Below, piece after piece: positions 378-26,334 of a stretch of 32,189 bases of DNA. Position numbers and translations under genes: made by a program. The DNA is from an uncultured Pseudomonadales bacterium (lineage in GTDB: Bacteria; Pseudomonadota; Gammaproteobacteria; Pseudomonadales; UBA7239). The notes under the pieces are model-generated. The model had not been told where the DNA came from. It ran no database searches and worked only from the letters and a program-made list of their open reading frames with translations. How positions within the stretch are numbered: the first letter of the stretch is position 1; each line of letters opens with the position of its first letter. The stretch spans positions 1 to 32,189 of the forward strand of contig CAZHQZ010000002.1 of NCBI GenBank assembly GCA_964534675.1. The letters run 5' to 3'.

Positions 378-514
378 CAAGTCGATCAAGGCGTTCGCTA
401 CGCTCACTAGGACAGTCCAAATCGGCGCTCTTCGCATTATCGCGCTAGTTTGTCCTGCTCCTTAGCTCGGTGTTATACGCCATCAAACTCCTCAGCCACA
501 TTCACAGGCCTTTT

Positions 515-1948
515 ATGACTCTAGTAAAAAATGCTTTTCTCCGGGATGTTGGGAAAGAACTAATAGAGGAAAACGTAGCAATATTTGCTGGTGCCGGCAT
601 GTCGGCTGGGGCAGGCTTTGTCAATTGGTCAGAGCTTCTCCGGCCAATCGCTGAAGAGCTTGGGCTAAACATCGAACGTGAAACCGACCTGGTGGCGTTA
701 GCGCAATTTCATTGCAACGATAACGCGAACAATCGTAGCCAGCTTAATCAGCGTCTTATCGAAGAGTTTTCTCGCGAGGCGCATGAAACAGAGAATCATA
801 AAATCCTTAGCCGTTTGCCAATCCGTACTTACTGGACAACGAACTACGACAAAATCATTGAAACATCGCTCGACAGATCCGGCAAGATTGTTGACGTTAA
901 GTATACAAAAGATCACCTATCTACAACGAAGCCGCGAAGGGATGCTGTCTTATATAAAATGCATGGTGATGTAGACCATCCAAATAATGCTGTTTTGACG
1001 AAAGATGATTATGAAAAATATCACGTCAAAATGGATCAATATATTGCCAACTTAAAAGGCGATTTGATCTCAAAGACTTTCGTCTTTATTGGCTTTAGCT
1101 TCACAGACCCAAATTTAGATTACATTTTGAGCCGCGTTCGTGTTGCTTATGAAGGTAGCCAAAGGCGACACTATTGCTTTATCAAGCGAGTTGAACAACA
1201 ACGCGATGAGGATAAAGCTGATTTTGATTATCGCGCCAAGAAGCAAGAATTCTTCGTAAAAGACCTTGCAAGATTTAATATTAAGACGGTACTTGTAGAT
1301 GATTACGATGAAATCACAAAGCTACTAGCACAGCTGGAGGTCAACTATAAGTCAAAAACCGTTTTTATTTCTGGCGCTGCATGCGAGTATTCTCCTATTT
1401 CAGAAAAAGACGCATTGCGTTTTGTTTATGATCTCAGTCGTGCGCTGGTGGCTCAAGGAGTGCGCATTGTTTCTGGGTTTGGACTTGGTGTAGGCAGCTC
1501 AGTGATTTCTGGGGCGCTTGAAGAAACCTTTAAAACCGCGAAAGCCAAGATTGATGATGCTCTCGTTTTGCGGCCATTTCCGCAATCAACCGAGGGGGAT
1601 ATTCCGCTGCCAGCTCTTTGGACTCAATATCGTGAAGACATGATCGAGCGAGCGGGTATCGCATTATTTTTATTTGGAAACAAGCTTTCTGGAAGCAATA
1701 TCATTCTTTCAAATGGAATGAGGGAGGAGTACGCGATTGCTAAAGAGCGGGGGTTATTTTTGATTCCAATAGGGGCTACCGGCTATATGGCAGAGGAGCT
1801 TTGGACGGAAGCGAATGCTGAAATTCAATCAAATTCAGATATTTCTAGCGAAACAAAGATGCTTTTTGAAAAGCTAGGAGATAAATCAATTCCATTGAAC
1901 GAAATTATAGATGTCGTACTAAAAATTATTAATTCAAGGGAGAGGTAA
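515..1948 (+). CDS. thsA: Thoeris ThsA: N-terminal SIR2-like NADase domain plus C-terminal SLOG ligand-binding domain
   Basis: Motifs AIFAGAGMS, HKILSRLPIRTYWTTNYDKIIE, AVLYKMHGDVDHP and FVFIGFSFTDPNLDYILSRVR are SIR2 Rossmann/catalytic Asn and His motifs. The C-terminal half (TVFISGAA...VSGFGLGVGSSVISGALEE...RPFPQ) is SLOG-like. The protein is collinear with Bacillus ThsA as I recall it. I chose the ATG at 515 because it gives an N-terminal length matching ThsA; the ORF-track GTG at 470 is the alternative. Confidence 0.9.
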   Translation: MTLVKNAFLRDVGKELIEENVAIFAGAGMSAGAGFVNWSELLRPIAEELGLNIERETDLVALAQFHCNDNANNRSQLNQRLIEEFSREAHETENHKILSRLPIRTYWTTNYDKIIETSLDRSGKIVDVKYTKDHLSTTKPRRDAVLYKMHGDVDHPNNAVLTKDDYEKYHVKMDQYIANLKGDLISKTFVFIGFSFTDPNLDYILSRVRVAYEGSQRRHYCFIKRVEQQRDEDKADFDYRAKKQEFFVKDLARFNIKTVLVDDYDEITKLLAQLEVNYKSKTVFISGAACEYSPISEKDALRFVYDLSRALVAQGVRIVSGFGLGVGSSVISGALEETFKTAKAKIDDALVLRPFPQSTEGDIPLPALWTQYREDMIERAGIALFLFGNKLSGSNIILSNGMREEYAIAKERGLFLIPIGATGYMAEELWTEANAEIQSNSDISSETKMLFEKLGDKSIPLNEIIDVVLKIINSRER

Positions 1949-1953
1949 CCTTC

Positions 1954-2562
1954 GTGGCTAGAAAAACATTTATTTCATATAAATATAGCGAAGCGAGCGG
2001 CGTTAGGGACAAAATTCTCAAAGCGCTAGGAGATGATGCGACCTATTATCAGGGGGAGACAGCTGATTCTCCTGATTTAACGGATACATCGACAGAAAAT
2101 ATTAAGAAAAATCTGAAAGACATGATGCATGGGACGTCAGTTACGATAGTTGTTATTTCTCCAAATCTTACAAAAAGCAAGTGGATAGATTGGGAAATAA
2201 CGTATTCACTAAAAGAAATTACAAGATCGGACAGAGCGTCGAGAACAAATGGAGTTGTGGGCGTGATAATGAAATGCAACGGTGGTTATAGCTGGTTAGT
2301 GAACAGTGAAACCAACGATGACGGATGTTCTGTGAGAACGATTGATGGAAGCTATTTGTACAAAATCATTAATAAAAATCGATACAACCTTAAAAGCGGT
2401 AATGATGCCTGCTCTCACTGTAAAACGTACAGTAGACTTGATGGATCGTATATCGCGTTGATTGAAGAAGAAACGTTCGTTGCGGATCCTGAAAAATATA
2501 TTGAAAATGCATTTGAAAAGTCCCAAAACATCGAAAACTATGAGATCACAAAAGAAGTCTGA
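1954..2562 (+). CDS. thsB: Thoeris ThsB: TIR-like (DUF1863-type) domain protein
   Basis: It starts (GTG) 5 nt after the thsA stop, behind the SD-like AAGGGAGAGG. The N-terminus KTFISYKYSE...SVTIVVISPNLTKSKWIDWEI matches the TIR-like pattern (hydrophobic strand-SY, then S-x-W-v-x-WE). Adjacency to a SIR2-SLOG gene defines type I Thoeris. Confidence 0.85.
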   Translation: MARKTFISYKYSEASGVRDKILKALGDDATYYQGETADSPDLTDTSTENIKKNLKDMMHGTSVTIVVISPNLTKSKWIDWEITYSLKEITRSDRASRTNGVVGVIMKCNGGYSWLVNSETNDDGCSVRTIDGSYLYKIINKNRYNLKSGNDACSHCKTYSRLDGSYIALIEEETFVADPEKYIENAFEKSQNIENYEITKEV

Positions 2563-2757
2563 ATGTCCGTGAAGTTGATATGGGTGTATAGCCCTTTGTG
2601 GCTCGCCACTTTCGGCGGTGGCCTGATTCCGTAGCCCGTTAGATAGAACGCAGTCGGGCTCAATGTCGCCTTGTGGCAGCGGACCGTATTTTGTCTGTCT
2701 GGGCAGCATTACTCCGCTCGCTATACAGCCCAATAGTGAGTGTTAAAACCCAGAATA

Positions 2758-2800
2758 TGGACTAAAAAGCAAAAATAAGTAATATATACACTACTTATTT
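2758..2800 (+). promoter_or_regulatory. Candidate sigma70 promoter overlapped by a 9-bp inverted repeat (possible operator) upstream of the AAA ATPase gene
   Basis: TGGACT (2758-2763), a 16-nt spacer, then TAATAT (2780-2785). The inverted repeat is AAATAAGTA (2773-2781) / TACTTATTT (2792-2800), ending 13 nt before the ATG at 2814. This is a pattern match only. Confidence 0.3.
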
Positions 2801-2813
2801 ACAGGTAACAGGT

Positions 2814-4262
2814 ATGGATATCCCCAAAACAGAGCTCTATTCCGTACTGCAGGAGTTTAATCCCTGGTGGTCCAGCCAGGCATTGGCAGATCTGCCGGAC
2901 TGGGAGCGGTCTGCGGTGGAGCAGGTGTGGCGCTGGACGCAGAACACGGATACCCGGCGCGCCCTGTTACTGAGTGGTGCCAGGCAGGTGGGCAAGACCA
3001 CCATTTTTCGCCAGACCGTGCGCCGCTTGCTGGCTGCCGGTACACCACCTACCAATATCCTCTATGCGACCTTCGACCACCCACTACTGAAGTTGGCTGG
3101 GCTGGAAAACACCCTGCGTGCCTGGGAGGAGCTGTTTCCCCAGGTGCCGGGCAGTGGCCAGCGCTGGTTGTTTCTCGATGAGATCCAGTACGTGCCGGAT
3201 TGGCAAACCTGGGTGAAGCATCAGGTGGATTTCCAGCCCACCAACCGGGTGGCCATGACCGGCTCTGCCGATCCACTGCATACCGGCTCGAAGGAATCCG
3301 GTGTCGGGCGCTGGGAGACACTGCCAGTGGCCACACTCGCGTTTGCCGAATATCTGCGCCTGCGCAAAGTCGAGGTGCCGGAGCTGCCGGAGTTCCGTTC
3401 GCTGCGTGATCTGTTTGACTGGCGTGAAGCGGATTTCGTGCTCACGGCCCGGCAGGCACGCCCGTTGACGGCGCACTTTCATGAATACCTGCTGCGTGGC
3501 GGCTTCCCGGAGCCGGCGCTCGCCAATGACCTGACCCGTTGCCAGCGCCTGTTGCGTGAAGACATTGTGGAAAAAGTGCTGAAGCGCGACATGACAGCCA
3601 TTTACAACGTGCGGCGCGTGCTGGAAGTGGAAAAGATTTTTCTCTACCTCTGCTACCACGATGGCGGCATTCTCGACATCCCGACCCTGACCCAGCAGCT
3701 CGACGGCGTGAATCGCACGCTCGCGCTCAACTTTCTGGATCTGTTTGAATCCACCCACTTGATTTATCGCCTCAAACCGCACGGTTATGGCAAGGAAGTG
3801 CTGCGCGGCCGCGACAAGGTGTACTTGGCTGATGCTGCCTTGCCCGGTGCAATGATGTTGCTGGGCCGTAAATTGCTGGAACAGCCGGAGCGCCTGGGTG
3901 CTGCGGTGGAAACAGCCTTTTTCAAGCATGTTTACACGCGGTTCTATGATCGCACACCGCAGTTTTCCTACTGGCAAGACAAGAAAAACCGCGACGTGGA
4001 AGTGGATCTGATTGCGCAGATGGGTGAGCGCATTGTGCCGTTTGAAGTGAAATACCACGATGCCGAAGTGTCTGCCAAGCGGCTGAAAGGCTTGCGCCTG
4101 TTCATGGAGCAGCAACAGGTGGATGAAGGCTATGTGATTACGCAGCGCTGGGAAGATTTCAAGATGTTCAGCGTGCCTTCTGCACGCAAGGGCGAAGACA
4201 CCACCATTGGCCGCGTGGTTTCCATTCCCGCGCCACTCGCTTGTTACTGGTTATCTGCATGA
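2814..4262 (+). CDS. AAA+ ATPase of the COG1373 / DUF4143 type
   Basis: Walker A LLLSGARQVGKTT and Walker B WLFLDEIQYVPDW. The ~480-aa length and the C-terminal region with VDLI...VPFEVKY resemble the restriction-endonuclease-like DUF4143 module. The stop overlaps the hsdS start (ATGA at 4259-4262). Confidence 0.75.
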   Translation: MDIPKTELYSVLQEFNPWWSSQALADLPDWERSAVEQVWRWTQNTDTRRALLLSGARQVGKTTIFRQTVRRLLAAGTPPTNILYATFDHPLLKLAGLENTLRAWEELFPQVPGSGQRWLFLDEIQYVPDWQTWVKHQVDFQPTNRVAMTGSADPLHTGSKESGVGRWETLPVATLAFAEYLRLRKVEVPELPEFRSLRDLFDWREADFVLTARQARPLTAHFHEYLLRGGFPEPALANDLTRCQRLLREDIVEKVLKRDMTAIYNVRRVLEVEKIFLYLCYHDGGILDIPTLTQQLDGVNRTLALNFLDLFESTHLIYRLKPHGYGKEVLRGRDKVYLADAALPGAMMLLGRKLLEQPERLGAAVETAFFKHVYTRFYDRTPQFSYWQDKKNRDVEVDLIAQMGERIVPFEVKYHDAEVSAKRLKGLRLFMEQQQVDEGYVITQRWEDFKMFSVPSARKGEDTTIGRVVSIPAPLACYWLSA

Positions 4263-5605
4263 GCTTTTCTCGTTATCCCGAATACAAAGACAGCGGCGTG
4301 GAATGGCTGGGGGAAGTGCCAGAGCATTGGACTTCTGTTGCCATTAAATACATGGCAACAGACGAAAAATCTATTTTTATTGATGGAGACTGGATTGAAA
4401 GCAAGGATATTTCTGGAAATGAAATAAGATACATAACAACCGGAAATGTTGGTGAAGGAAAATATAAAGAACAAGGATCAGGATATATTTCTAGCGAAAA
4501 GTTTTATGAGTTGAATTGCACCGAAGTATTCCCAGGTGACATTTTAATTTCTAGGCTTAACCCTCCAATCGGAAGATCTTGCCTTGTTCCAGATCTTGAA
4601 AGTCGGATAGTGACATCAGTTGACAATGTTATATTCAGGCCTGATAGCTGTTACTCGCGAGACTATCTTATCTATCTTTTTTCATGCCCGGAATACTTTG
4701 AACATACGGGGAATATAGCTCGCGGTGCAACAATGCAGAGAATCAGCAGGGGTCTGCTTGGAAACATTCGAGTCGTTACGCCGCCAATAGCCGAGCAAAA
4801 CTCTATTGCTGCATTTCTGTATCAAGAAACCGCCAAAATCGACACGCTCATTGCCGAGCAAGAACAACTCATCGCCCTGCTGAAAGAAAAGCGCCAGGCC
4901 GTTATTTCCCATGCCGTGACCAAAGGGCTTGATCCCAACGTCAAGATGAAGGATTCAGGAATTGAGTGGCTGGGGGAAGTGCCGGTGCATTGGGGGGTTC
5001 TGCCACTGAAATACTTTGCCAGCTTTTCAGGCGGCGGCACGCCAAGCAGAGAAAATCTCAGCTACTGGAACGGCGATATCCCTTGGGTATCTCCTAAAGA
5101 CATGAAGAGCGAGAGAATTATTGGCGCCGAGGAATGTATTACGGAAGTTGGCTTATCTAATAGCTCCTCGTCCTTGCTCCCGGCCGATAGAGTTCTAATG
5201 GTGGTGCGATCTGGAATTCTACAGCACACCATTCCTGTAGCTATCAATGATGTTCCTGTGGCCTTGAATCAGGATATGAAAGCCATTTTGTTTAAGGAAG
5301 GAAGTTGTTTAAGTGATTTTTTCTTTCGTTGGGTGCAGGGATTAAATAGTGTGCTTTTGCTGGCTTGGGCAAAGCAAGGCGCTACGGTAGAAAGTATTGA
5401 GCAGGCATATCTTGCCAATACAGTATTCCCACTTCCTCCCATTGAGGAACAAAAAGCGATAATAAAATTTATCAATCAGCAGGTCGATATGTTCGATGAG
5501 CTAACGGCTGAAGCTGTGCGAGGAATTGAATTGCTCAAAGAGCGCCGCAGTGCGCTGATTTCGGCGGCGGTGACGGGGAAAATTGATGTGAGGGGTTCAG
5601 CATGA
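4259..5605 (+). CDS. hsdS: Type I restriction-modification specificity subunit HsdS (two target-recognition domains)
   Basis: An internally duplicated conserved motif precedes each TRD: DSGVEWLGEVPEHW at the N-terminus and DSGIEWLGEVPVHW mid-protein. The central conserved region is LIALLKEKRQAVISHAVTKGL and the C-terminal one is LLKERRSALISAAVTGKIDV. Both are typical HsdS coiled-coil spacers. Confidence 0.9.
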   Translation: MSFSRYPEYKDSGVEWLGEVPEHWTSVAIKYMATDEKSIFIDGDWIESKDISGNEIRYITTGNVGEGKYKEQGSGYISSEKFYELNCTEVFPGDILISRLNPPIGRSCLVPDLESRIVTSVDNVIFRPDSCYSRDYLIYLFSCPEYFEHTGNIARGATMQRISRGLLGNIRVVTPPIAEQNSIAAFLYQETAKIDTLIAEQEQLIALLKEKRQAVISHAVTKGLDPNVKMKDSGIEWLGEVPVHWGVLPLKYFASFSGGGTPSRENLSYWNGDIPWVSPKDMKSERIIGAEECITEVGLSNSSSSLLPADRVLMVVRSGILQHTIPVAINDVPVALNQDMKAILFKEGSCLSDFFFRWVQGLNSVLLLAWAKQGATVESIEQAYLANTVFPLPPIEEQKAIIKFINQQVDMFDELTAEAVRGIELLKERRSALISAAVTGKIDVRGSA

Positions 5606-6423
5606 AGCACACGCTGAGCTTGCTTGAAAATGCGATGGACAGCCTGGCAGAGGCTCTGAAAAAGTATGAGGAAGGCGAGGGTGGAGAAAGCAAGGCATAT
5701 AAATTTGCCGTCCTTCATATGTCCCACTTTGTTGAGTTGATCTTCAAATACCACATATCAAACAAGCATCATCTTCTTATATATAAAAATCCATTCTCAG
5801 AAAAAATTGATAAAAACATAACAATAGGGCTATGGGAGGCAATAAATTTTATTTCTAATGAAGGCGAGTCGGATCTTGGTGCGCAATTTAAATCCGACTT
5901 GCGGTGGCTGAAGAAACTAAGGAATGACATTGAGCATCACAAGTTTGAGATGGATGTGAATGAGGTAAGGGTTTCACTTGGTAGATTGTTTAGTGCGCTT
6001 GTCGAGTTTATAGAGGCAGAGGAGTCGCTTGAAATCAAGAATCATATCCCTGCGGAAACATGGGAAACATTCAAAACATTGTCAGATGAGTACGCGTTCA
6101 AGCTGAAAGACGCTATAAAAGAGGCTGATAGAATTGAGGAAGAGAACACTCCTGCCTATGATTCTGGGGAATACAGAACAATTAGAGTTATCTGTGAGAA
6201 TTGTGGCAACCCGACAATGGTGGTTAATCCTGAATCAGACGGCGGATTCAAATGTACATTTTGCGGCAGTGATGAGGGAGATAATCTTCCCGCTTTCTGC
6301 GATATGTGCGGAGCTGAATCAACAGTCGAAGAAATGGATTATTGGCGCGATGAGGAAACGGGTGGCGTTGAAACCCGCTGTTATTACTGTTCTGGCCGAT
6401 ATTTCATGGAAAAAGATGACTAG
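5602..6423 (+). CDS. Uncharacterised protein: N-terminal helical HEPN-like domain (Rx4H motif) plus C-terminal double zinc ribbon (4 x CxxC)
   Basis: ATGA overlap with the hsdS stop (5602-5605). The LRNDIEHH motif (R107...H112, nt 5920-5937) fits the HEPN Rx4-6H RNase signature and resembles the RNxxxH of HepT/DUF86. Cys pairs at C198/C201, C218/C221, C233/C236 and C260/C263 (nt 6193-6390). I do not recognise a named family. Confidence 0.6.
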   Translation: MKHTLSLLENAMDSLAEALKKYEEGEGGESKAYKFAVLHMSHFVELIFKYHISNKHHLLIYKNPFSEKIDKNITIGLWEAINFISNEGESDLGAQFKSDLRWLKKLRNDIEHHKFEMDVNEVRVSLGRLFSALVEFIEAEESLEIKNHIPAETWETFKTLSDEYAFKLKDAIKEADRIEEENTPAYDSGEYRTIRVICENCGNPTMVVNPESDGGFKCTFCGSDEGDNLPAFCDMCGAESTVEEMDYWRDEETGGVETRCYYCSGRYFMEKDD

Positions 6424-6435
6424 CTTGGGTGCGGC

Positions 6436-8118
6436 ATGAAAGAAACAGAGCTAAAGCAGCACTTGCTGCAAAAATTCCCGAAAGAAAATTCTGCGTGTGA
6501 GTGGAAGGAATTCAAGAGTCTGAAACATTCTGTGTTTGGTAATGCAGGCAACGACATCATTAGCTATATTTCCTCCATTGCTAATATGGAAGGTGGTCAT
6601 CTTGTCATTGGTGTTGAAGATGCAGCCCTGAATATTGTCGGCATACAGGAATTTCACAATCACACACCAGACAATATCCGTCAGCGAATACTGGAGCGAT
6701 GCAGCGCCCTGGATTCCGAAGCTTTTCATGTCCAGCCATTCATAACCGATGACACGCAAAAAACTGTCTGGGTTTTCTATATCCCCAAGCATCGACCCCG
6801 CATGCCGGTGTATGCGCATGACAAGGTTTGGCAGCGCCTTGATGATTCGTTAGTGGAAATGCGCGCTGAACGCTTGAATGCCATTCTTGCAGAGCCTATA
6901 GATAACAGTGACTGGACTGCAGAGATTGTAGAAGGTGCGACATTGGCTGATCTTGATCCGGCGGCTATTGCATTGGCAAGAGAAAAATATTCCGAGAAAT
7001 TCAAGACCGCACCCTATGCTGCTGAAATGGCTGGATGGAGTGACGGCACCTTTCTAGACAAGGCCAAAATTACAATCGGTGGAAAAATCACAAGGACCGC
7101 TTTGCTCTTGCTCGGCAAGGCGGAATCCAGTCACTTCCTGCCAACGCTGGCGCAAATCACCTGGAAGCTGGAAGGTGCTGAACGCGCTTACGAGCATTTT
7201 AGCTTGCCATTCCTGATCGCCACCACACAGGTCTTGCACCGCATCCGCAATCTTGCCTACAAGATTTTTCCTCAAGATCAGCTTCTAGCAACCGAAGTCA
7301 GCAAATACGACACGCGCGTAGTGCTTGAAGCATTACACAACTGTATTGCTCACCAGGACTACACGGTGGGAGCGCGGGTGCTTGTTATCGAGCAAACCGA
7401 CAAGCTGGTGTTTGAGAATATGGGTGGTTTTTATGACGGGAAACCGGAAGATTATTTCAGTGGTGACAGAACACCCGGCCGTTACCGCAATCACTGGTTA
7501 ACGCAGGCGATGGTCAATTTGAACATGATTGATACCGTTGGCGATGGCATTCGCACCATGACTCAATCCCAGCGCAGCCGCTACTTTCCTCTGCCGGATT
7601 ACCAGAAATCAACGCGTGACAAAGTGGTGCTGGAAATTTATGGGCATGTCATGGACGAAAACTACACTCGCTTGTTGCTTGCCCAGCGTGATTTGCCATT
7701 AACCACAGTGATTCTGTTGGACCGGGTGCAGAAAAAACTACCTATCACCGACGAGGCGGCCGCCATGCTCCGCAAGGCTGGCCTGATCGAGGGTAGAAAA
7801 CCCAATTACTACACATCCGCTCAAGTAGCCAAAACAGCAGATAGGCAAGCAGAATATATCCACTATCGGGGCTTCAAGGATTCCTACTATAAAGATAAGG
7901 TTATTGCCTACCTGCAACAGTACGGTTCGGCTGACAGGGCGCGGCTGCGGCAGCTGATTCTAGACATGCTTCCGGCAGTATTAGACGAGAAACAGAAGGC
8001 TAACAAGGTGAGAAACCTGCTTCACGCCATGTCCACAAGGGACAAAACCATAGAAAAATCAAAGGGTTTGCCTGTAGGTCACTGGGGGCTCACACAGTCT
8101 AAACATGAAAATATTTAG
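6436..8118 (+). CDS. AlbA_2 (Schlafen-type divergent AAA) / HATPase_c_4 domain protein, COG2865-like putative nucleic-acid-binding regulator
   Basis: The N-terminus EWKEFKS...IISYISSIANMEGGHLVIGVED...IVGI matches the AlbA_2 pattern (E-x-K...FAN-x-GG-x-L-x-GV-D). The central EALHNCIAHQDY matches the EAL-x-NA-x-HRDY region of the RecG-C-terminal-like ATPase domain. The C-terminal region is wHTH-like. Confidence 0.7.
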   Translation: MKETELKQHLLQKFPKENSACEWKEFKSLKHSVFGNAGNDIISYISSIANMEGGHLVIGVEDAALNIVGIQEFHNHTPDNIRQRILERCSALDSEAFHVQPFITDDTQKTVWVFYIPKHRPRMPVYAHDKVWQRLDDSLVEMRAERLNAILAEPIDNSDWTAEIVEGATLADLDPAAIALAREKYSEKFKTAPYAAEMAGWSDGTFLDKAKITIGGKITRTALLLLGKAESSHFLPTLAQITWKLEGAERAYEHFSLPFLIATTQVLHRIRNLAYKIFPQDQLLATEVSKYDTRVVLEALHNCIAHQDYTVGARVLVIEQTDKLVFENMGGFYDGKPEDYFSGDRTPGRYRNHWLTQAMVNLNMIDTVGDGIRTMTQSQRSRYFPLPDYQKSTRDKVVLEIYGHVMDENYTRLLLAQRDLPLTTVILLDRVQKKLPITDEAAAMLRKAGLIEGRKPNYYTSAQVAKTADRQAEYIHYRGFKDSYYKDKVIAYLQQYGSADRARLRQLILDMLPAVLDEKQKANKVRNLLHAMSTRDKTIEKSKGLPVGHWGLTQSKHENI

Positions 8119-8182
8119 ATGGCTTTAGACGAATTTAGACAATGGTTGATAACCAGCCAGAGGCTTACCACATGGATTTACG

Positions 8183-11100
8183 ATGACCCTCCACCTCGAA
8201 ATCAAGTTTGAAGACGACATCTGCAACCACCTCGCAGCCAATGGCTGGCTGTATGCGGAGAAGGATGCCCAGCACTACGATCGCACACGGGCACTCTATC
8301 CTGCCGATGTGATTGCCTGGGTGCAGGCTGCCCAGCCACAGGCTTGGGAAACCCTGAATAAGAATCACGGTGCCAATGCGGAAAACACATTGCTTGATCG
8401 CCTGCGCAAGCAGCTGGATGATCGCGGCACGCTGGATGTGTTGCGCAACGGTATTGAGTTGCTGGGCCTCAAGCAGCCGCTGGCGCTCACCCAGTTCAAA
8501 CCGGCATTGGCCATGAACCCGGACTTGCAGGCACGCTACGCCGCCAACCGCTTGCGTGTGGTGCGACAGGTTCGCTATTCCCTGCACAACGAGAATTCGA
8601 TTGATCTGGTGTTGTTTCTGAACGGCATTCCCGTTGCCACCGTGGAACTGAAAAGCGATTTCACGCAGAGCGTGGAAGATGCGGTGGATCAGTACCGTTT
8701 CGACCGTCACCCCAAACCCAAGGGCCAGCATGCTGCCGAGCCGCTGCTGGACTTTCCGCGCGGGGCGCTCGTGCATTTTGCGGTGAGCAATTCCGAAGCG
8801 CGCATGACCACACGCCTGGCTGGCCCTGCTACCTTCTTCCTGCCGTTCAACCTGGGTGATCACGGCGCTGCCGGTAACCCGGTGAACCCCAACGGCCACA
8901 AGACGGCGTATCTCTGGGAAAGCGTTTGGGCGCGTGATTCCTGGCTGGAAATTATCGGGCGTTATCTCGTGACGAAACGGGATGACAAGAAGCAGATCAC
9001 TTCGATTATTTTTCCGCGCTACCACCAGCTGGATGCCACTCGCCAACTCACAGCGGCAGTACTGGCAGAGGGGCCGGGCCAGAAATACCTGATCCAGCAT
9101 TCGGCAGGCTCTGGCAAAACCAACTCCATCGCCTGGACTGCGCACTTTCTGGCCGATCTACACGACGCTGCCCAGAAAAAGCTGTTTGATTCGGTGTTGG
9201 TGGTGAGTGACCGCACCGTGCTGGATGCACAGTTGCAGGAAGCCATCTTCGATTTCCAGCGCACTACTGGCGTAGTCGCTACCATCAAGGGTGAGGCGCA
9301 AAGCAAGAGCGGCGAATTGGCAGAGGCGCTATCCGGTAACAAGAAAATCATTGTGTGCACCATCCAGACCTTCCCGGCCATTTACAAAAAAATGAGTGAG
9401 ATGGCTTCCAACGAAGGGAAGCGTTTCGCGGTTATTGCCGATGAGGCGCACAGCTCGCAAACCGGCAGCGCTGCCGCCAAGCTGAAACAGGTGCTTTCTG
9501 CAGAAGAAATGCAGGAACTGGAAGACGGTGGCGAATTTAGCGCAGAAGACATGCTGGCGGCACAAATGGCTGCACGGGCGAATGACGCTGGTATCACCTA
9601 CATAGCCTTCACTGCCACCCCCAAGGCCAAGACAATGGAGTTGTTTGGCCGTTTGCCAGACTCGACCAAGCCTGCCGATGAAGGCAATCTCCCCGCGCCG
9701 TTCCATGTGTACTCCATGCGGCAGGCTATCGAGGAGGGTTTCATTCTCGATGTGCTGAAGAACTACACCTCGTACAAACTCGCTTTCAAGCTGGCCAGCG
9801 GTGGCAAGGAGTGGAACGAGAAAGAAGTGGAAAAGAGCGCTGCCATGAAGGGCATCATGCGCTGGGTGCGCCTGCATCCGTACAACATCAGCCAGAAAGT
9901 GCAGGTGGTGGTTGAGCACTTCCGCGAGAATGTGGCACCACTGCTGGGCGGCCGTGCCAAGGCGATGGTCGTGGTGGGCAGTCGCCTAGAAGCCGTGCGC
10001 TGGCAGATCGCCATCAACCAGTACATCAAGTCTTCTGGGTACAAAATAGGCACACTGGTGGCGTTTTCTGGCGAGGTAAACGACAAGGAATCTGGTGACG
10101 AGCCGCTCACGGAAAACAGCAAGCTGTTGAACCCGAACCTGAAAGGTCGCGACATGCGCGAAGCGTTCAAGACCGAGGAATACCAGATTCTGCTCGTTGC
10201 CAACAAATTCCAAACCGGGTTTGACCAGCCATTGTTGTGTGGCATGTATGTGGATAAGCGATTGGGAGGCATCCAGGCCGTGCAGACACTTTCACGCCTG
10301 AACCGCGCCCATCCTGGCAAAGACACCACCTACATTCTCGATTTCGTCAACGAACCAGCCGACATCCTCGCTGCCTTCAAAACCTACTACGAGACCGCCG
10401 AACTGGAGGGGGTGACTGATCCCAATCTGGTATTTGATTTGCGCTCACAGCTCGATGCGGAGGGCCATTACGACGATAACGACATCACGCGTGTCATCAA
10501 GGCCGAGTTCAACCCGAAACCCACTCAATATGAACTCAGTGCCGCCATCGCGCCGGTCGCTGATCGTCTGCTCAAACGCTACAAGGCTGCCAAGATGGAT
10601 TTGGAAGCAGCTCAGGCCAAGGGCGACAAGAACGCCGAACAGGAGGCCGCCAACGCCATCGGTGCTCTGGTTCTGTTCAAGCGTAACATCGGTGTGTTTC
10701 TGCGCGTGTACAGCTTCCTGTCGCAGATCTTTGATTACGGCAATACCGACATCGAGAAGCGCGACATTTGCTACAAACGGTTACTACCGCTGCTGGAGTT
10801 TGGCCGTGAGCGAGATGGTGTTGATCTGTCAAAAGTGACCCTCACCCACCACAAACTGAAAGACAAAGGTATCCAGACCTTGTCATTGAAAGATGGTGAC
10901 AAGCCGACATTGCCGCCAATGGAGGGCGTTGGTAGTGCCGAGGTGCGGGAGCCGGAGAAAATCCTGCTCAATGAAATCATTGCCAAGGTGAATGACCTGT
11001 TCGAGGGCGAGCTCACCGACGACGACAAACTGGTTTATGTGAATAGCGTGCTGAAAGGCAAATTGATGGAATCAGAGGTTCTGAAGCAGCAGGCGCAGAA

Positions 11101-11314
11101 CAACACCAAGGAACAGTTTTCCAATTCGCCGGATCTGGCTGCCGAAATCATGAACGCCATTATGGATGCTCTGCAGGCTCACACGGCCATGAGCAAGCAG
11201 GCCTTGGATTCCGAGAAGGTGCGTGGCGGTCTGAAAGACATTCTTCTGGGGCCTGGGCAGTTGTATGAAATGCTGAAAGATGGGGGTGCCAATACGGTTC
11301 GGCCAGCACTTTGA
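8183..11314 (+). CDS. hsdR: Type I restriction endonuclease subunit HsdR (SF2 helicase/translocase plus nuclease)
   Basis: 1043 aa. The N-terminal HSDR_N-like region has EDDICNHLAANGWLY and DLVLFLNGIPVATVELK (PD-(D/E)xK). Helicase motif I QHSAGSGKTNS, motif II VIADEAHSSQTG, motif III FTATPK, and KFQTGFDQPLL late in the helicase region. Confidence 0.92.
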   Translation: MTLHLEIKFEDDICNHLAANGWLYAEKDAQHYDRTRALYPADVIAWVQAAQPQAWETLNKNHGANAENTLLDRLRKQLDDRGTLDVLRNGIELLGLKQPLALTQFKPALAMNPDLQARYAANRLRVVRQVRYSLHNENSIDLVLFLNGIPVATVELKSDFTQSVEDAVDQYRFDRHPKPKGQHAAEPLLDFPRGALVHFAVSNSEARMTTRLAGPATFFLPFNLGDHGAAGNPVNPNGHKTAYLWESVWARDSWLEIIGRYLVTKRDDKKQITSIIFPRYHQLDATRQLTAAVLAEGPGQKYLIQHSAGSGKTNSIAWTAHFLADLHDAAQKKLFDSVLVVSDRTVLDAQLQEAIFDFQRTTGVVATIKGEAQSKSGELAEALSGNKKIIVCTIQTFPAIYKKMSEMASNEGKRFAVIADEAHSSQTGSAAAKLKQVLSAEEMQELEDGGEFSAEDMLAAQMAARANDAGITYIAFTATPKAKTMELFGRLPDSTKPADEGNLPAPFHVYSMRQAIEEGFILDVLKNYTSYKLAFKLASGGKEWNEKEVEKSAAMKGIMRWVRLHPYNISQKVQVVVEHFRENVAPLLGGRAKAMVVVGSRLEAVRWQIAINQYIKSSGYKIGTLVAFSGEVNDKESGDEPLTENSKLLNPNLKGRDMREAFKTEEYQILLVANKFQTGFDQPLLCGMYVDKRLGGIQAVQTLSRLNRAHPGKDTTYILDFVNEPADILAAFKTYYETAELEGVTDPNLVFDLRSQLDAEGHYDDNDITRVIKAEFNPKPTQYELSAAIAPVADRLLKRYKAAKMDLEAAQAKGDKNAEQEAANAIGALVLFKRNIGVFLRVYSFLSQIFDYGNTDIEKRDICYKRLLPLLEFGRERDGVDLSKVTLTHHKLKDKGIQTLSLKDGDKPTLPPMEGVGSAEVREPEKILLNEIIAKVNDLFEGELTDDDKLVYVNSVLKGKLMESEVLKQQAQNNTKEQFSNSPDLAAEIMNAIMDALQAHTAMSKQALDSEKVRGGLKDILLGPGQLYEMLKDGGANTVRPAL

Positions 11315-11388
11315 AAGCATTATGCTCCATATTTGTAGCGTATATAGGTTTTGTCTATTGATAAAGTCATAAGCTGGTATTAGCTTCT

Positions 11389-12378
11389 ATGGTAGAGGCA
11401 TTATTCAGTGGGTGGCTTATGAACGACAAACTCGACTTCTCCGGCATTACCGATACTACCGCCAGTGAATACTTGAAAATTGGTGAAATGCTGATTCGAA
11501 ATTTTATGGCATCTGATAATAAAAAAACGATGGAGTCTTATGCCAACTGGATTGCGAATACATACATCAATAAATGTGCCGCCAACACATGGAGAAAGTA
11601 CCGCAGAGCTGCTATTTATCATGTCTATATAAAAAAGCCTGAAACTGCAGAGTTTTTACAAAAAATCCTGCTCGATAAAAAACCTGAAGAACGAGTTCGT
11701 GCCAAGCGCCGTAAAAGTAGGAAGAGCTACAGGGAGCAGGATTTCGCGAAACTTTTGCAATATTTGCAACAAAAGGCTGCGGGTAAGCGGTGCAGTTATT
11801 GGTGGCGTCAGGCTGCGGTGACTTTGCAAGCCAACAGTATTGTTGGCTTGAGGCCAAGTGAGTGGATGACCGCTTTTTCACAAGTAATTAATAATGAGAT
11901 TGTTCTGCGGGTCATCAATGCCAAAAACACGCATAACCGGTCGCACGGTTTTTCAAGAACACTGCATATTCCGATTTCAAAAGATAATGATGTGCATGTA
12001 ATTGAAACAAAAATCATCATGACTGGAGATGCTATTCTCAACAAGAGAGCCAAGTCATTTGAGGCCTACGGGGCTACGGTTGCTTCGTATTTATTGCGCG
12101 CCAACAACGCTGTGTTTGGTAAGGATAAGCCGACAATTGCGATTTACTCTACTCGGCATCAGTGTGCTGCCAATTTCAAAGCGGCTGGGCACACAAAAAA
12201 TGAAGTGGCGGCAGTCATGGGGCATGCCTCCAACAAAACAGCGGGCAGGCATTACGGCAGGAAAAGTAGGGGCAGGCGCGTGGCTAACTTGCCTACGCCA
12301 TCGCTTGATGACATGAGTAGGGTTGCTGCGATAAATAATTCGGTGGCCGCATCCGTATCGTTTTCTCTTGGGATGTAG
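11389..12378 (+). CDS. Tyrosine recombinase / phage-type integrase family protein
   Basis: The C-terminal catalytic-domain pattern is GLRPSEW (Arg I), YSTRHQCAANF (Arg II region), and VMGHASNKTAGRHYGR (His...Tyr nucleophile). The start is uncertain: ATG at 11389 or ATG at 11419 (MNDKLDF). Confidence 0.7.
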   Translation: MVEALFSGWLMNDKLDFSGITDTTASEYLKIGEMLIRNFMASDNKKTMESYANWIANTYINKCAANTWRKYRRAAIYHVYIKKPETAEFLQKILLDKKPEERVRAKRRKSRKSYREQDFAKLLQYLQQKAAGKRCSYWWRQAAVTLQANSIVGLRPSEWMTAFSQVINNEIVLRVINAKNTHNRSHGFSRTLHIPISKDNDVHVIETKIIMTGDAILNKRAKSFEAYGATVASYLLRANNAVFGKDKPTIAIYSTRHQCAANFKAAGHTKNEVAAVMGHASNKTAGRHYGRKSRGRRVANLPTPSLDDMSRVAAINNSVAASVSFSLGM

Positions 12379-12391
12379 TCTGGAATTCATC

Positions 12392-12408
12392 GAGGGTAGA
12401 TTACCCTC
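12392..12408. terminator. Hairpin between the convergent integrase and glycosyltransferase genes
   Basis: GAGGGTA-gat-TACCCTC, a 7-bp perfect stem that overlaps the glycosyltransferase stop codon. There is no clear U-tract on either strand, so function as a terminator is uncertain. Confidence 0.3.
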
Positions 12409-14485
12409 CTGATCTTGCCCCAGTTTCTCGGATGGTTGGCAAAAAACCATAGAATGCGTGGTAGAGACTTTTCTTGTTTAAATAGTCGTCTAGACAAGTA
12501 AACTCTTGCTCCAAATCCTTTCTCAAATACCCTGGGATTACCAACAAGTCTACTTCTTGACAGATATCAATACGCCCATTTAATGAGGTTGAAATACCAT
12601 CCCACGTATTCATCTCCCCCTCAATAAAGCATTGCAACATCTTTTTTGGCGAAGCAGGCTCATAAGAAGTTTTTCCACGGCAGAAAATATCGGTAATGAC
12701 ATAAGGTCCATGCGTAAGTGCTGCTTCCTTACCTCTTCTATGCATGCTCTGTACCACAACCTCCCCTAATAATTCTGGTTGCCTAGTAATGATAAGATGG
12801 TAAATAGAGTAATGGACGTGATATTCATTCAAGAAACTTATTTGACCCAAGCCGTATTCTTTAAATGGCGGATAATCCCTATAGTCTTTGTCGGATGTTT
12901 TCCACTCCCAGTACTTGTCGATTTCACAATTAAAAATCCGAAGAATATTAGACTTTTGTTTTGCGTACAAAATGCCTAATTCAATACCATCTTTTGCTTC
13001 TTCAAAATAATTATGTCCTTCCTCATCCTTACGAGTAAATGTTACGTTTGTATGGCCAGCCAATGAAGCACCTGCTGAGCAAATAAGTTTCTTGTATAAG
13101 GACACGTCTTCAAAATCATGCCTGAGAAAAATAGTACTCGTATCTAGATAAACGCCACCATATTTTTCTAAAAGTCTAAGCCTAATAATGTCACTATGAT
13201 TTCCATTCTGAACACTAGGATCGCTAGCCTTCTCTATTAGTTGATGAAAGTATGGTGGGAGGGATATGTAGTTTTCAATATAATCAGGCGCGCGCTTGTC
13301 TAACGTAGTAACGATAACAATCCAATCACTGTTGCTTAGCCTAGTCTCTAAATTTCTTATGTTTAAGGCATGACCGATAGGCATGTCCTCTTTAGAGGAG
13401 TGCCAGTACAAGAAAACCACTTTTTTATTTTTCAATCTATCACTGTTCTTAATTCGGTTTAACGCATAATCGACATCTGCGTTTTCGAATTGATTCATAT
13501 CCTTAATGCCTCCAAAGTCAACCAGGCATTTGCTCTGAACAACTTCAAAGTTTCGACTTGTTGTTGGTTGCCAAATATTAAAATACTTAGTCTCAGGGTA
13601 GATAGCGACAACACCTTTATTTAGCACCTTAGAAACATGGACAAGAGATGTGTCTACTGAGATCAATAGTCCTGATTTGCGAATGATCGGAATAACACTT
13701 TCAAAATTTGTTATTCCTTTTGCCAAATCAACATTAGGTAAACTCAAGTCGTCAACCAACTGTGAGGCTGGCAGTAAAGAATTAGGAGAGTGCATAACGC
13801 CAAAGCTACTATCGCGATGAGACGTCGCTAGGTGCCTTATAAGAGACTTGGTTTTTTCGATAGCAAGAGACTTATCATTACGACTCCCGTAAGGGTTGAT
13901 AAGAAAATCATAACTTTTGGAAAAACAGTCGTTCTCTACACAAAGTGAAGCTCCAATCAAATTGTTGTTCCCGCTGACTACCATATCGACAACCGACTGG
14001 TAGATTCCGTAGATATCATTGTGTTTCGACTTATCTATGAATGCCTTGCTTGACATCTTTAAGGTGCTATCTGTGCTAAAAATAACTCGAGGGTTCAAGA
14101 GAAACGCACACAAAACATCCATAACCCCAAGCTTGCCAAAGAGTGGGACAACTGCATCACACCTTTTTACATTGAATGTGATCTTAACTAGATCAAGCCA
14201 TCCAAAATTCTTCTCAATTACGTGAATAGAGTCTACTTGTATCAGCGAACAATAGAGCGTACGCAGTGGTTCGTTGGTAATCACGCTAACTCTTATGCCG
14301 CAGCGAGAGGTTAGGAATTCGATGATGGGGGCTGAAGCGATAGCGTCACCGTACTTACCATTCCAGTTAACGAAAACAACATGCCTGACATTGCTGTCTT
14401 TTTTCGCAAGCCGCTTTTTGAATACAAATAACCAATCAAGAAGCCGTATCAGGAGCTCACTAAGCGCAGGCAATAAGGTCATCAT
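12401..14485 (-). CDS. Two-domain glycosyltransferase: N-terminal GT9 (heptosyltransferase-like) fused to a C-terminal Caps_synth/GT32-like domain
   Basis: In the N-terminal half, HVVFVNWNGKYGDAIASAPIIEFL and LLISVDTSLVHVSKVLNKGVVAIY parallel the GT9 motifs (..LGD....P....L and ..DSG..HLA.A...P.VALF). In the C-terminal half, VVFLYWHS...SDIIRLRLLEKYGGVYLDTSTIFL matches the capsular-polysaccharide-synthesis family motif (SD..R..LL.kyGG.w.DaT). The gene is markedly AT-rich. Confidence 0.6.
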   Translation of the reverse strand: MMTLLPALSELLIRLLDWLFVFKKRLAKKDSNVRHVVFVNWNGKYGDAIASAPIIEFLTSRCGIRVSVITNEPLRTLYCSLIQVDSIHVIEKNFGWLDLVKITFNVKRCDAVVPLFGKLGVMDVLCAFLLNPRVIFSTDSTLKMSSKAFIDKSKHNDIYGIYQSVVDMVVSGNNNLIGASLCVENDCFSKSYDFLINPYGSRNDKSLAIEKTKSLIRHLATSHRDSSFGVMHSPNSLLPASQLVDDLSLPNVDLAKGITNFESVIPIIRKSGLLISVDTSLVHVSKVLNKGVVAIYPETKYFNIWQPTTSRNFEVVQSKCLVDFGGIKDMNQFENADVDYALNRIKNSDRLKNKKVVFLYWHSSKEDMPIGHALNIRNLETRLSNSDWIVIVTTLDKRAPDYIENYISLPPYFHQLIEKASDPSVQNGNHSDIIRLRLLEKYGGVYLDTSTIFLRHDFEDVSLYKKLICSAGASLAGHTNVTFTRKDEEGHNYFEEAKDGIELGILYAKQKSNILRIFNCEIDKYWEWKTSDKDYRDYPPFKEYGLGQISFLNEYHVHYSIYHLIITRQPELLGEVVVQSMHRRGKEAALTHGPYVITDIFCRGKTSYEPASPKKMLQCFIEGEMNTWDGISTSLNGRIDICQEVDLLVIPGYLRKDLEQEFTCLDDYLNKKSLYHAFYGFLPTIRETGARSGG
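12409..12443 (-). mobile_element. Possible degenerate relic of an IS3-family right terminal repeat
   Basis: CTGATCTTGCC (12409-12419) is identical to the first 11 nt of the IS terminus at 18418 and 24260. Farther in, TTTCTCG matches the same position in the reverse-complemented end at 167. Roughly two thirds identity over ~35 nt by eye. It lies inside the last codons of the glycosyltransferase ORF. Confidence 0.3.
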
Positions 14486-14830
14486 TTAGAGCTAGTCACG
14501 GTTATTTGGATGTTTTTTCTGGCCGATAAGTGGACGCCTGCGGGTAGCTGTCCAGCCCCGGACGATTAATTACGTGTCTATTGAATAATGCGAGCTTGTG
14601 TCGCTGCCACTTCTTGATTATAAAAAATCAACCACCTGCAGAGTCGTCTGGCAATGTTTGTCTATGCCGTGTGAATTTGTCAGGAGATTACCTATAACAA
14701 AATCTCGCATACCGTGGCAAGTTTCATGATGAGATGATAAATATGATCATGCGGAGCTAGACACCGTCTTTGGCTCGGATCGCCTATAGTCGGCAAGAAG
14801 GATATAAATGCGTTCTCGACAGAGGTTCTG

Positions 14831-15295
14831 TTGGACAGTCTTCACGAGTTGTTAACCACAATGCCCGAAGCTGAGCGAATCCATTCGCTTAAAGCACGGA
14901 TAGTTCCCGGCCTAGGCGTGGCGCAGGGAACTCTCGCTCGCCAGTTGCCACTGATCAGCCAAGGCTTCCCCGAGGTCGTAGACTGTTACCCTGGGACCAT
15001 AAATATGGAGCTCGAATGTCCTCTCGAAGTGACGCAGCCCGATCATCGCACTCCTCCGCTTGCCTGGACTCCGAGCGGACGAACGACTGAAGTATTCGAC
15101 CTAGTGCGTATTGAGCTTGAGTTCGGCTCACTACCAACGCGCGTGCCGGCATGGTTGTACGTTGCCCACTTATCTCCTCACCGTGACACCCCGACCGTTC
15201 ATGAGGTGATAACTCAGCAGTTAAACCTGAGTGATGCCAGTGAGTGCCAAATTCATCTGCGCGCAAGTGCAGTAACACTGACATCCACACATTAA
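14831..15295 (+). CDS. DUF120-like protein (fold of the archaeal CTP-dependent riboflavin kinase)
   Basis: ARIVPGLGVAQGTLARQLPLISQGFPEVVDCYPGTINMELE parallels the RibK/DUF120 pattern G-x-V-x-SG-x-G-x-G...PY-x-GTLN-x-x-L. The C-terminal AWLYVAHLSPHRDTPTVHEVITQQLNLSDASECQIHL parallels ...H...-x-EIIA...L...L-x-DGD-x-V. The TTG start at 14831 follows AGAGG; the ATG at 14861 is the alternative. Confidence 0.45.
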   Translation: MDSLHELLTTMPEAERIHSLKARIVPGLGVAQGTLARQLPLISQGFPEVVDCYPGTINMELECPLEVTQPDHRTPPLAWTPSGRTTEVFDLVRIELEFGSLPTRVPAWLYVAHLSPHRDTPTVHEVITQQLNLSDASECQIHLRASAVTLTSTH

Positions 15296-15319
15296 CAAAC
15301 GAAGCTTCAAGGCTGCTAC

Positions 15320-16444
15320 TCACGGGTGAATCACCCTGCCATTGGTGCTTAACAACTCGGCATTTGTCAGGTACTCCCTCAGCAACACCAAGGAAGGCGC
15401 ACATTGCGGCTGACTTAGAAACTCGTTACCCAATGCAGACTTGTAAAGACGCAGCCAAGTCGGCGCAGGCACCTTCGGCAGGAATGCGGCGAGAGACTCT
15501 CGGTTTCCCTCCCCGAACAACAGGCGCAGGGTGCGCAGGATTGGTTGGTAGTCCCGTGCAGACAACAGCTCCGCAACGGTATCATCCAGCCGCTGCTCGA
15601 TCGCCACGCTATTCAGTCGATCCTCGACTGAGGCGTCGCCCAGCGCCACCCGGGGGTCGATCGCTACTGGATAGATTGCGCGGAACGACTTTGCACCGTT
15701 ACGCATGGATTCATAAAGCACTTTGTCGGCAGTAGATCCGGTAACCAACACATCGTCGCCGAAGATCACATGCACACCGCTCCATCGGTAGAAATTCTCA
15801 GCCGGAATGACATGATCTTGGAGCAGATTGACATGCTCGCGCTCGTCGGTGCTGAGGCTAGCGTAGTTCTCGCAGGGCGGTGCAATCCTGGGTAGCTTGA
15901 CGTTGATGATGGTCGGCAACGCCATATGCGCCAGTTTGACGTTGACTTCCTCGACCACGAACTCATAGAGCACGTTCGCCGTGGACGGCACGTTGCGCCA
16001 ACCAGTGGTCATCATCACCACGTTGTCACCACAGACCTTGGCGTTCTGGAACAGGTATGACCATTGCGAGTCTGGCCTATCCAGCTCGCCACAGAGGTAG
16101 TCGATCAGTTGCCTTGCGAGATACCGGATGTCATGCACACCGCCGTATTTTGCACGGCTGTAGATCCCAGCCAGTGCTGTGGCATCGCTGCCCGTGGCCA
16201 TGTCGCGGAACACCCCCGACTCGGCAGGTGTAAGGCAGTGCAGGGCGGTACCGCCAAAAATCGAAACATACTCGGTCATGCTGATCAGGTCACACGCAAA
16301 TAGCTCGGCAGCGAACGCGCGGAATCCAGTTTTCACATCATTCGCACGAGGTTGAGCGGCAGCCTGACGAAACATCGCCAACTGGACATCAACCGGGCTT
16401 TTAAGTACATCGGACCATAGCGGAGAATTTGTGGGGCAAATCAT
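15320..16444 (-). CDS. Phosphoribosyltransferase-fold protein with large unassigned N- and C-terminal extensions
   Basis: The type I PRTase PRPP-binding loop VHVIFGDDVLVTGSTADK (residues ~225-241, nt 15734-15772) is a hydrophobic run followed by DD-x-x-x-TG-x-T. The other ~220 N-terminal and ~130 C-terminal residues are not recognisable to me. The start lies 2 nt after the PHP gene stop. Confidence 0.6.
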   Translation of the reverse strand: MICPTNSPLWSDVLKSPVDVQLAMFRQAAAQPRANDVKTGFRAFAAELFACDLISMTEYVSIFGGTALHCLTPAESGVFRDMATGSDATALAGIYSRAKYGGVHDIRYLARQLIDYLCGELDRPDSQWSYLFQNAKVCGDNVVMMTTGWRNVPSTANVLYEFVVEEVNVKLAHMALPTIINVKLPRIAPPCENYASLSTDEREHVNLLQDHVIPAENFYRWSGVHVIFGDDVLVTGSTADKVLYESMRNGAKSFRAIYPVAIDPRVALGDASVEDRLNSVAIEQRLDDTVAELLSARDYQPILRTLRLLFGEGNRESLAAFLPKVPAPTWLRLYKSALGNEFLSQPQCAPSLVLLREYLTNAELLSTNGRVIHP

Positions 16445-16446
16445 GT

Positions 16447-18338: not shown

Positions 18339-18417
18339 AAAGTTCTCGGTTCAACCTTGCGCCAATGCATAGGTTTTTTTGTGAATAATTTTAAATAGTT
18401 ACAACGACTGATGAAAT

Positions 18418-18646: not shown

Positions 18647-18649
18647 GGT

Positions 18650-18659
18650 GGGGGGGGGG
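18650..18659. repeat. Homopolymeric G10 tract immediately outside the IS left end
   Basis: G at 18650-18659, 3 nt beyond the IS terminus at 18646. Confidence 0.9.
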
Positions 18660-18801
18660 CAAACGGCGACTACACCTTTTTGCTGCGCAGCCTTGGATAA
18701 TGACTTATGCAAAGAGCCAAAACATGAGGACTGTCTGCCCAACAGAAGTGAGAATTATGGAATGGAAGCGAAGTCAGTCAAGGTCGGTAAGATCAGTATA
18801 G

Positions 18802-24666: not shown

Positions 24667-26334
<1,668 letters not shown>

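Follow-up and report, generated by a model that had tools for sequence, protein, structure and literature searches.

The 32,189-nt stretch of DNA considered here (the window) comes from an uncultured Pseudomonadales bacterium of the UBA7239 lineage (GenBank assembly GCA_964534675.1, contig CAZHQZ010000002.1), and it carries at positions 5602–6423 of the forward strand an open reading frame of 273 aa with an ATG start, whose product joins an N-terminal HEPN domain of the DUF3644 type to a double zinc ribbon and resembles the PADLOC family PDC-S64. We consider it likely that this protein is an autonomous, single-protein defence effector against mobile elements, belonging to the HEPN-DUF3644 plus zinc-ribbon type and related to HEC-08, which is longer. 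This view is based on homology, motif conservation, fold topology and genomic distribution, as described below, and on the defence function and the histidine requirement of HEC-08, which were taken from the literature.

HEC-08 (Hma-embedded candidate 08) is a validated DUF3644-HEPN plus zinc-finger defence protein with SO_3166 (5YEP) as its best PDB match; its anti-phage defence was demonstrated in E. coli MG1655 ΔRM, a host without restriction-modification (R-M), and mutation of H128 in its Rx4-6H motif abolished the defence (Payne et al., bioRxiv 10.1101/2024.01.29.577857). When its sequence, obtained from Table S2 of Payne et al., was compared by hhalign with a profile of 75 members of the window protein's family, a probability of 97.6% (E 3.8e-12) was obtained over 232 columns covering both the HEPN domain and the ribbons, and R107 and H112 of the window protein were aligned with R123 and H128 of HEC-08. 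While the homology is clear with this diverse profile, a narrow profile of 30 close sequences gave a probability of only 17%, and the window protein itself matched a hidden Markov model of HEC-08 in the ribbon region only (E 7.2e-4), with no stretch passing alone.

The best database match of the protein was to PADLOC model PDLC05059, which represents PDC-S64 (E 3.8e-30, 103 bits, residues 5–224). Its relatives match the same model at E-values from 2e-10 to 9e-29, HEC-08 matches it at 3.3e-8, and some of the relatives match both the PDC-S64 and the HEC-08 models. In addition, a match to DUF3644 at E ≤ 0.01 was found in 38 of 75 family members, the best being 1.6e-8.

Sequence motifs, conservation and predicted fold

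The TGA stop codon of hsdS, the gene for a type I specificity subunit, lies at 5603–5605, and the tetranucleotide ATGA at 5602–5605 forms a 4-nt stop/start overlap with the gene under study, which is preceded by a Shine-Dalgarno-like GAGGGG at 5589–5594, 7 nt 5' of the ATG. Nucleotides 5920–5937 encode R107-N-D-I-E-H112, inside LRNDIEHH, at the predicted end of helix 3; judging from its conservation and from the HEC-08 alignment, this Rx4H motif is the predicted RNase active site. The protein has exactly eight cysteines, all of which occur in CxxC pairs (198/201, 218/221, 233/236, and 260/263). When the protein sequence was shuffled 20,000 times, 0.005% of the shuffles had at least four CxxC pairs by chance and 4.6% had R[NDH]xxxH. 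Because of the latter frequency the Rx4H motif alone is weak evidence, and we accept it as a real HEPN motif because it is conserved among the relatives.

A word-index search yielded 345 homologues, and the family comprises 1023 clusters at 50% identity (E ≤ 1e-3). R107, N108, H112, and the eight cysteines are invariant across 30 close homologues (53–67% identical to the window protein). Across 75 diverse cluster representatives (23–55% identical), a set which was partly chosen for carrying the motifs, only R107, H112, and the eight cysteines are invariant, and N108, E45, and K49 each reach a conservation of at least 90%. Among 112 full-length cluster representatives taken without such selection, R[NHDQK]xxxH was present at the equivalent place in 105 and exactly four CxxC pairs were present in 75. 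That these R, N, H, E, and K residues are so strictly conserved speaks for the predicted catalysis.

HEPN domains are defined as four-helix bundles with an insert between helices 2 and 3, in which the Rx4-6H motif is placed at the end of helix 3 or at the start of the loop to helix 4, the conserved arginine is immediately followed by a polar residue (N, D, or H), and an upstream acidic residue, typically within Ex3[KR], is located in helix 2 (Anantharaman et al., 2013; PMC3710099). AlphaFold2 modeling with the family alignment (pLDDT 84.8 for the full-length protein and 92.9 for residues 1–190) predicted helices 1 to 4 at residues 7–26, 32–55, 93–111, and 119–140, with an insert at 57–87 between the second and the third, then a helix at 151–182 and six short strands bearing the four CxxC knuckles. 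In the secondary-structure order of this model R107–H112 falls at the C-terminal end of helix 93–111; the spacing of RNDIEH (residues 107–112) is that of the Rx4-6H motif, N108 directly follows R107, and E45xxxK49 is located in helix 32–55. From the models, the structural comparisons described below and these topology rules, the HEPN core is placed at residues 7–139 (5620–6018, forward strand), and the accessory acidic/basic motif of helix 2, E45-x3-K49, is assigned to 5734–5748 from its conservation and the same rules. The long helix of residues 151–182 (6052–6147), as predicted, links the HEPN domain to the zinc ribbons.

When the model was searched against the PDB with Foldseek, the highest-probability matches were HEPN proteins, namely Csm6 (5yjc, probability 0.98, TM-score 0.55) and the HepT toxins 5yep (SO_3166, 0.90), 7bxo (0.85), and 7ae6, the HepT matches ranging from 0.60 to 0.90; further matches were to AbiV, AF0298 (2hsb, TM-score 0.57), Las1, and HepS. 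Sequence and profile searches of the PDB left the HEPN half unmatched and returned only weak zinc-ribbon matches (S27e, PriA, and PHD), among which residues 192–222 weakly matched the C4 zinc ribbon of ribosomal protein S27e. Conservation and the modeled fold support the assignment of the N-terminal half to the HEPN domains, with an Rx4H site that is conserved and stands at the canonical place. The assignment of the C-terminus as two C4 zinc ribbons is also supported: the first, S27e-like, pairs C198/C201 with C218/C221 (6193–6264), on the evidence of cysteine invariance, the weak S27e profile matches and the beta hairpins of the model, and the second pairs C233/C236 with C260/C263 (6298–6390), on the evidence of cysteine invariance and the modeled beta strands at 230–259.

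An initial annotation, made from the letters of the window and their open reading frames, had already described the 273-aa frame and its ATGA coupling to hsdS, the Rx4H motif within LRNDIEHH and the four CxxC pairs sufficient for two zinc ribbons. All of these are present, and R107/H112 and the cysteines proved invariant in the sets of 30 and 75 relatives. Its suggestion that the N-terminal half is a HEPN domain is borne out by the conservation and the modeled topology, and on its question of whether R107 and H112 sit on the canonical HEPN helix, the secondary-structure order of the model places both at the end of helix 93–111.

The host operon and its embedded genes

The gene is located in a type I R-M operon on the forward strand. 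It is preceded by hsdS (4259–5605, alternative start 4241), which was identified by Methylase_S and PADLOC Specificity_I (E 7.8e-123) matches, and hsdS is in turn preceded at 2814–4262 by a gene for a 482-aa AAA_14/DUF4143 ATPase, the PADLOC candidate PDC-S01 (E 1.4e-45), which has a weak Mrr_cat-like C-terminus. Downstream of the HEPN–zinc-ribbon gene are a gene for a 560-aa SLFN_AlbA_2/HATPase_c_4 protein (6436–8118, Pfam) and hsdR for the type I restriction subunit (8183–11314; HSDR_N, SWI2_SNF2, and ResIII domains). No convincing PADLOC family was found for the 560-aa protein, which matches phrog_12156 ("DNA helicase") at E 9e-29, and its gene may be a fourth embedded defence cassette. The next gene (11389–12378) encodes a 329-aa protein with a weak Phage_integrase match below the cut-off (E 1.2e-4), and this integrase-like reading frame may mark the edge of the island.

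Upstream of the ATPase gene are thsA (SIR2-STALD; start at 470 or 515, end at 1948; PADLOC E 4e-205) and thsB (TIR; 1954–2562; E 8e-85), both on the forward strand. We looked for hsdM in the window and found it absent. A sister contig (L048), which is 99.96% identical to positions 168–2782 of the window, carries in its upstream part (1–1252) the C-terminus of an HsdM (85% identical to another HsdM), a gene for a 160-aa ThsB-like TIR protein and an intact 152-aa gene. In the window itself, the sequence up to approximately nt 137 encodes in frame 3 the C-terminal end of an IS3-type (rve) transposase. In comparison with the sister contig, an insertion sequence (IS) has therefore entered the 152-aa gene between hsdM and Thoeris, and the same insertion probably also accounts for the contig ending at the start of the window. 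The order of the operon would thus be hsdM-[Thoeris]-[PDC-S01]-hsdS-[HEPN–zinc ribbon]-[SLFN]-hsdR, with hsdM inferred from the sister contig and an IS inserted close to the 5' end of the operon. In this order a complete type I Thoeris pair (470–2562, forward strand) is embedded between hsdM and hsdS.

The GC content of the operon is a mosaic (Thoeris ~39–44%, the ATPase gene ~60%, hsdS ~45%, the HEPN–zinc-ribbon gene 41–44%, and hsdR 53–60%), which points to separate acquisition of the cassettes. The gene order and the overlap support the view that the HEPN–zinc-ribbon gene is embedded in the type I R-M operon and is translationally coupled within it. The stop codon of the PDC-S01 ATPase gene also overlaps the hsdS start by ATGA (4259–4262), and because the same overlap joins this gene to hsdS, we regard the coupling of hsdS to the HEPN–zinc-ribbon gene as a habit of the operon with no specific link.

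Elsewhere in the window, three tightly packed genes occupy 15320–18338 on the reverse strand, encoding a radical SAM protein (17310–18338), a PHP-domain phosphoesterase (16447–17325) and a 374-aa protein with no Pfam match (15320–16444). A DUF6933 protein (E 7e-39) is encoded at 22663–23202 on the forward strand among housekeeping-looking genes, and groEL is located at 24667–26313 on the reverse strand.

Homologue neighborhoods and proposed function

The closest homologue (P0002) is 67% identical to the window protein, and its locus (L036) has the order hsdM, Abi_2, a half-size hsdS, the homologue, a 131-aa reading frame (p131), GmrSD, and hsdR. As in the window, the homologue gene has a 4-nt ATGA overlap with the preceding hsdS; the last 55 residues of this HsdS are 64% identical to those of the window HsdS, and the HsdR is 77% identical to the window HsdR (tblastn). 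The R-M backbone is thus common to the two loci, while the embedded cargo is wholly different except for the HEPN–zinc-ribbon gene, which suggests that within this operon lineage the gene was inherited in place while the other cargo was exchanged. The locus forms an integrase-bounded island (2677–19195 of its contig) adjoining csrA, with a HEPN_Toprim_N protein encoded after hsdR.

Linkage to R-M was surveyed further in 35 loci from species-representative genomes, whose homologues are 50–62% identical to the window protein and most of which had 8 kb of flanking sequence. Relatives of the window HsdR or HsdS were found in none of the 35 loci within ~8 kb (tblastn), and an HsdM-like gene was found in one, ~5 kb away on the opposite strand, by an HsdM search of adequate sensitivity (a sequence of 28% identity was picked up with this query at E 3e-23). 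Among the 118 genes located up to two positions from a homologue, a Pfam scan showed that each family was limited to three loci at most and that no family of type I R-M recurred in a second locus; at most one of the 118 is possibly of type I R-M, and a PADLOC scan of the homologue neighbors found three OLD/PARIS/Gabija-type ATPases only. Neither an SLFN/AlbA_2 gene nor any other neighbor co-occurs with the homologues in the surveyed loci as a fixed partner. Four further loci have, respectively, an OLD-like ATPase and a helicase, a metal-efflux operon, a RES-Xre toxin-antitoxin pair, and a type II R-M system with a TIR protein and a resolvase beside the homologue. Two homologues (~55% identical) are Tn3-type cargo of conjugative plasmids, of IncF and other types (L046, NZ_CP040265.1; L047, NZ_CP074141.1). 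The module on these two plasmids consists of a resolvase, a DUF6530 protein, a hypothetical gene and the homologue, and it stands beside a Tn3 transposase or IS elements. The window protein also matches the prophage/phage family phrog_20824 (E 4e-55), and a scan of viral contigs with the alignment of close relatives gave three loci.

Among the loci examined, the R-M-embedded, hsdS-coupled position occurs only in the window and in the locus of the closest homologue. Judging from these neighborhoods, R-M linkage is not a trait of the family, and beyond the lineage of these two loci the link vanishes. The defence-related and mobile contexts, lacking a conserved neighbor, were counted in favor of a stand-alone defence gene.

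The initial annotation had put the gene in the position of PrrC and had proposed an RNase guarded by the R-M enzyme. As to the position, the gene does come after hsdS and before hsdR, with the SLFN_AlbA_2/HATPase_c_4 gene (6436–8118) separating it from hsdR, so that these two are not adjacent. As to the guard, HsdMSR would bind and silence the protein until a phage anti-restriction protein disabled R-M and released a suicide RNase, the zinc ribbons replacing the ABC ATPase of PrrC as the contact or sensor module. PrrC is a precedent for such an arrangement, the start codon of the gene, which is flanked by hsdS and hsdR, overlaps the stop codon of hsdS, and the closest homologue has the same ATGA-coupled position amid differing cargo, with the hsdS end and hsdR conserved as given above. 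However, the survey, which the initial annotation had suggested, found this position shared by the closest homologue only: related hsdR or hsdS genes are missing from all 35 loci, the single hsdM-like gene is distant and on the other strand, at most one of the 118 near neighbors could belong to type I R-M, and further homologues stand alone beside unrelated genes or on Tn3 transposons and plasmids, whereas PrrC is found nearly always inside R-M loci (Payne et al., bioRxiv 10.1101/2024.01.29.577857). Moreover, HEC-08 is functional in a ΔRM host, no P-loop/ABC ATPase or other PrrC-like region was found in the window protein by Pfam, PADLOC, or NCBIfam, and the PDC-S01 ATPase gene, though unrelated, overlaps hsdS by an identical ATGA. 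We consider the guard quite unlikely, and the sole ground on which we keep it alive is that the hsdS-coupled position is conserved in the two closest lineages. Because this position after hsdS was kept despite the complete exchange of other cargo, one may propose that the sub-lineage of the window and the closest homologue is functionally wired to its type I enzyme, the ribbons docking on HsdS or HsdM and loss or inhibition of R-M unleashing the RNase. We give this proposal little chance; if true, it would be a PrrC-like guard on a different, ATPase-free scaffold.

We also considered that the protein might stabilize or regulate the island instead of defending the cell, either as a selfish toxin or addiction element or as an RNA- or DNA-binding protein without catalysis. 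The gene is mobile, and HEPN proteins include the toxins of toxin-antitoxin systems, for example HepT, which ranked high in the structural comparison. The Pfam and PADLOC neighbor scans found no conserved antitoxin-like neighbor such as MNT, the strict conservation of the five motif residues speaks for catalysis, and the family was catalogued through embedding in defence systems, all of which makes this possibility, to our mind, very improbable.

For the autonomous defence effector, we infer that the protein is an RNase with a defence role of its own. R107, N108, and H112 of the four-helix N-terminal HEPN domain would form a metal-independent RNase site, assisted by E45 and K49, of the HEPN kind whose cleavage leaves 2',3'-cyclic phosphate ends, and the domain would probably act as a homodimer, by analogy with other HEPN RNases. 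The two C4 zinc ribbons, carried on the long linker helix, may be a sensing, nucleic-acid-binding, or auto-inhibitory module that holds the RNase quiet until an infection cue, whereupon RNA cleavage would block the propagation of a phage or plasmid. The gene would be one of at least four independent cassettes in the type I R-M operon (Thoeris, the PDC-S01 ATPase, the HEPN–zinc-ribbon protein, and the AlbA_2/Schlafen-type protein), presumably co-transcribed and co-inherited with the hsd genes, its product most likely acting independently of the R-M enzyme.

Several observations weigh against this reading. The two closest lineages have kept the hsdS-coupled position, which gives a functional link to R-M some plausibility. 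The Foldseek matches to the PDB had no significant E-value (best 0.1–0.3) and TM-scores of 0.4–0.57, and folding the N-terminal domain alone raised the model confidence while the E-values were still non-significant. The match to Pfam DUF3644 (PF12358) scored 18.7 bits (E 1.4e-3), below the gathering cut-off of 27.6. The PDC-S64 profile is covered at positions 4–226 of 339 only, and with the C-terminal third of that model unmatched the protein looks like a member of a shorter subfamily. Finally, a literature search for "PDC-S64" was empty, and no tested member of this family was found in the searchable literature.

Comparison with known systems

PrrC and RloC have the RNase chemistry of the HEPN Rx4-6H motif that is predicted for the window protein and, in the case of PrrC, the place between hsdS and hsdR. 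They differ in that an N-terminal ABC ATPase precedes their HEPN domain, which is C-terminal, while the HEPN domain of the window protein is N-terminal and followed by two zinc ribbons, and the near-exclusive R-M embedding of PrrC is in contrast with a family that is mostly found outside R-M. HepT (SO_3166, 5yep/7bxo) and Csm6 are the best structural matches of the N-terminal domain (probability 0.85–0.98, TM-score 0.41–0.55), at 11–18% identity and with non-significant E-values; the window protein has neither the MNT antitoxin partner of the former nor the CARF domain of the latter.

Loss of plasmid RP4 is caused by Ishtar1 and Ishtar2, two monogenic proteins with a HEPN (DUF4145/DUF3644) domain (bioRxiv 10.64898/2026.07.06.735840). 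They resemble the window protein in their length (~250 aa), monogenic nature, N-terminal HEPN domain, RNxxEH motif, mobility, and patchy distribution, while their C-terminal domain is beta/alpha without CxxC pairs. We examined Ishtar as the family of the window protein and rejected it, the similarity being confined to the active-site helix (hhalign probability 12.6%) and the ribbons being absent. It may still be asked whether the same architecture and chemistry are naturally directed at conjugative plasmids, for example by cutting the replication primer RNA as proposed for Ishtar. RP4 loss caused by the Ishtar proteins would agree with this role, and the presence of homologues on conjugative plasmids and transposons would fit a conflict between elements; the different C-terminal domain and the narrow alignment of Ishtar, together with the anti-phage activity of HEC-08 as the nearest validated relative, make such a role unlikely in our opinion.

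EC042_2821/DUF3644 was described as a HEPN clade with a conserved Rx4-6H motif, fusions to zinc ribbons and occurrence in R-M operons (Anantharaman et al., 2013; PMC3710099). Its type member has winged helix-turn-helix and restriction endonuclease domains, both of which are absent from the window protein, and the profile matches suggest that the present family borders or overlaps this clade. Payne et al. (bioRxiv 10.1101/2024.01.29.577857) obtained the 145 PDC systems by collecting genes located inside BREX, DISARM, and type I R-M loci, and PDC-S64 is accordingly a single-gene phage defence candidate defined from genes embedded in defence systems, to which the location of the window gene in type I R-M corresponds. 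The initial annotation did not recognize the architecture as a named family. That statement does not hold, in view of the PDC-S64 match, the profile homology to HEC-08 and the EC042_2821/DUF3644 clade with zinc-ribbon fusions described in 2013.

The window protein opens no new category and fits the existing ones; it adds a compact two-ribbon protein of 273 aa to the HEPN-DUF3644 plus zinc-ribbon single-gene defences, a group in which HEC-08 is validated. Its family is large (1023 clusters, as given above), shows strong constraint on ten residues, and occurs in chromosomal islands, transposons, plasmids, and prophages; it offers a reasonable starting point for work on what keeps a solo HEPN RNase latent and on what its zinc ribbons sense. 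In addition, the locus is an example of a type I R-M operon in which several independent defence cassettes have landed.

HEC-08 is the nearest validated relative. Both proteins have an N-terminal HEPN domain of the DUF3644 type, C-terminal CxxC ribbons and an acidic ...DD tail, and both are encoded by a single gene inside a larger defence operon. HEC-08 is longer, with 366 aa and eight CxxC pairs (approximately four zinc sites) against 273 aa and four pairs; it is embedded in Hma, whereas the window gene is embedded in type I R-M, and its defence has been validated experimentally, whereas the present family has candidate status. The window protein is a shorter, two-ribbon member of the HEPN-DUF3644 plus zinc-ribbon single-gene defence group, and its architecture is not new.

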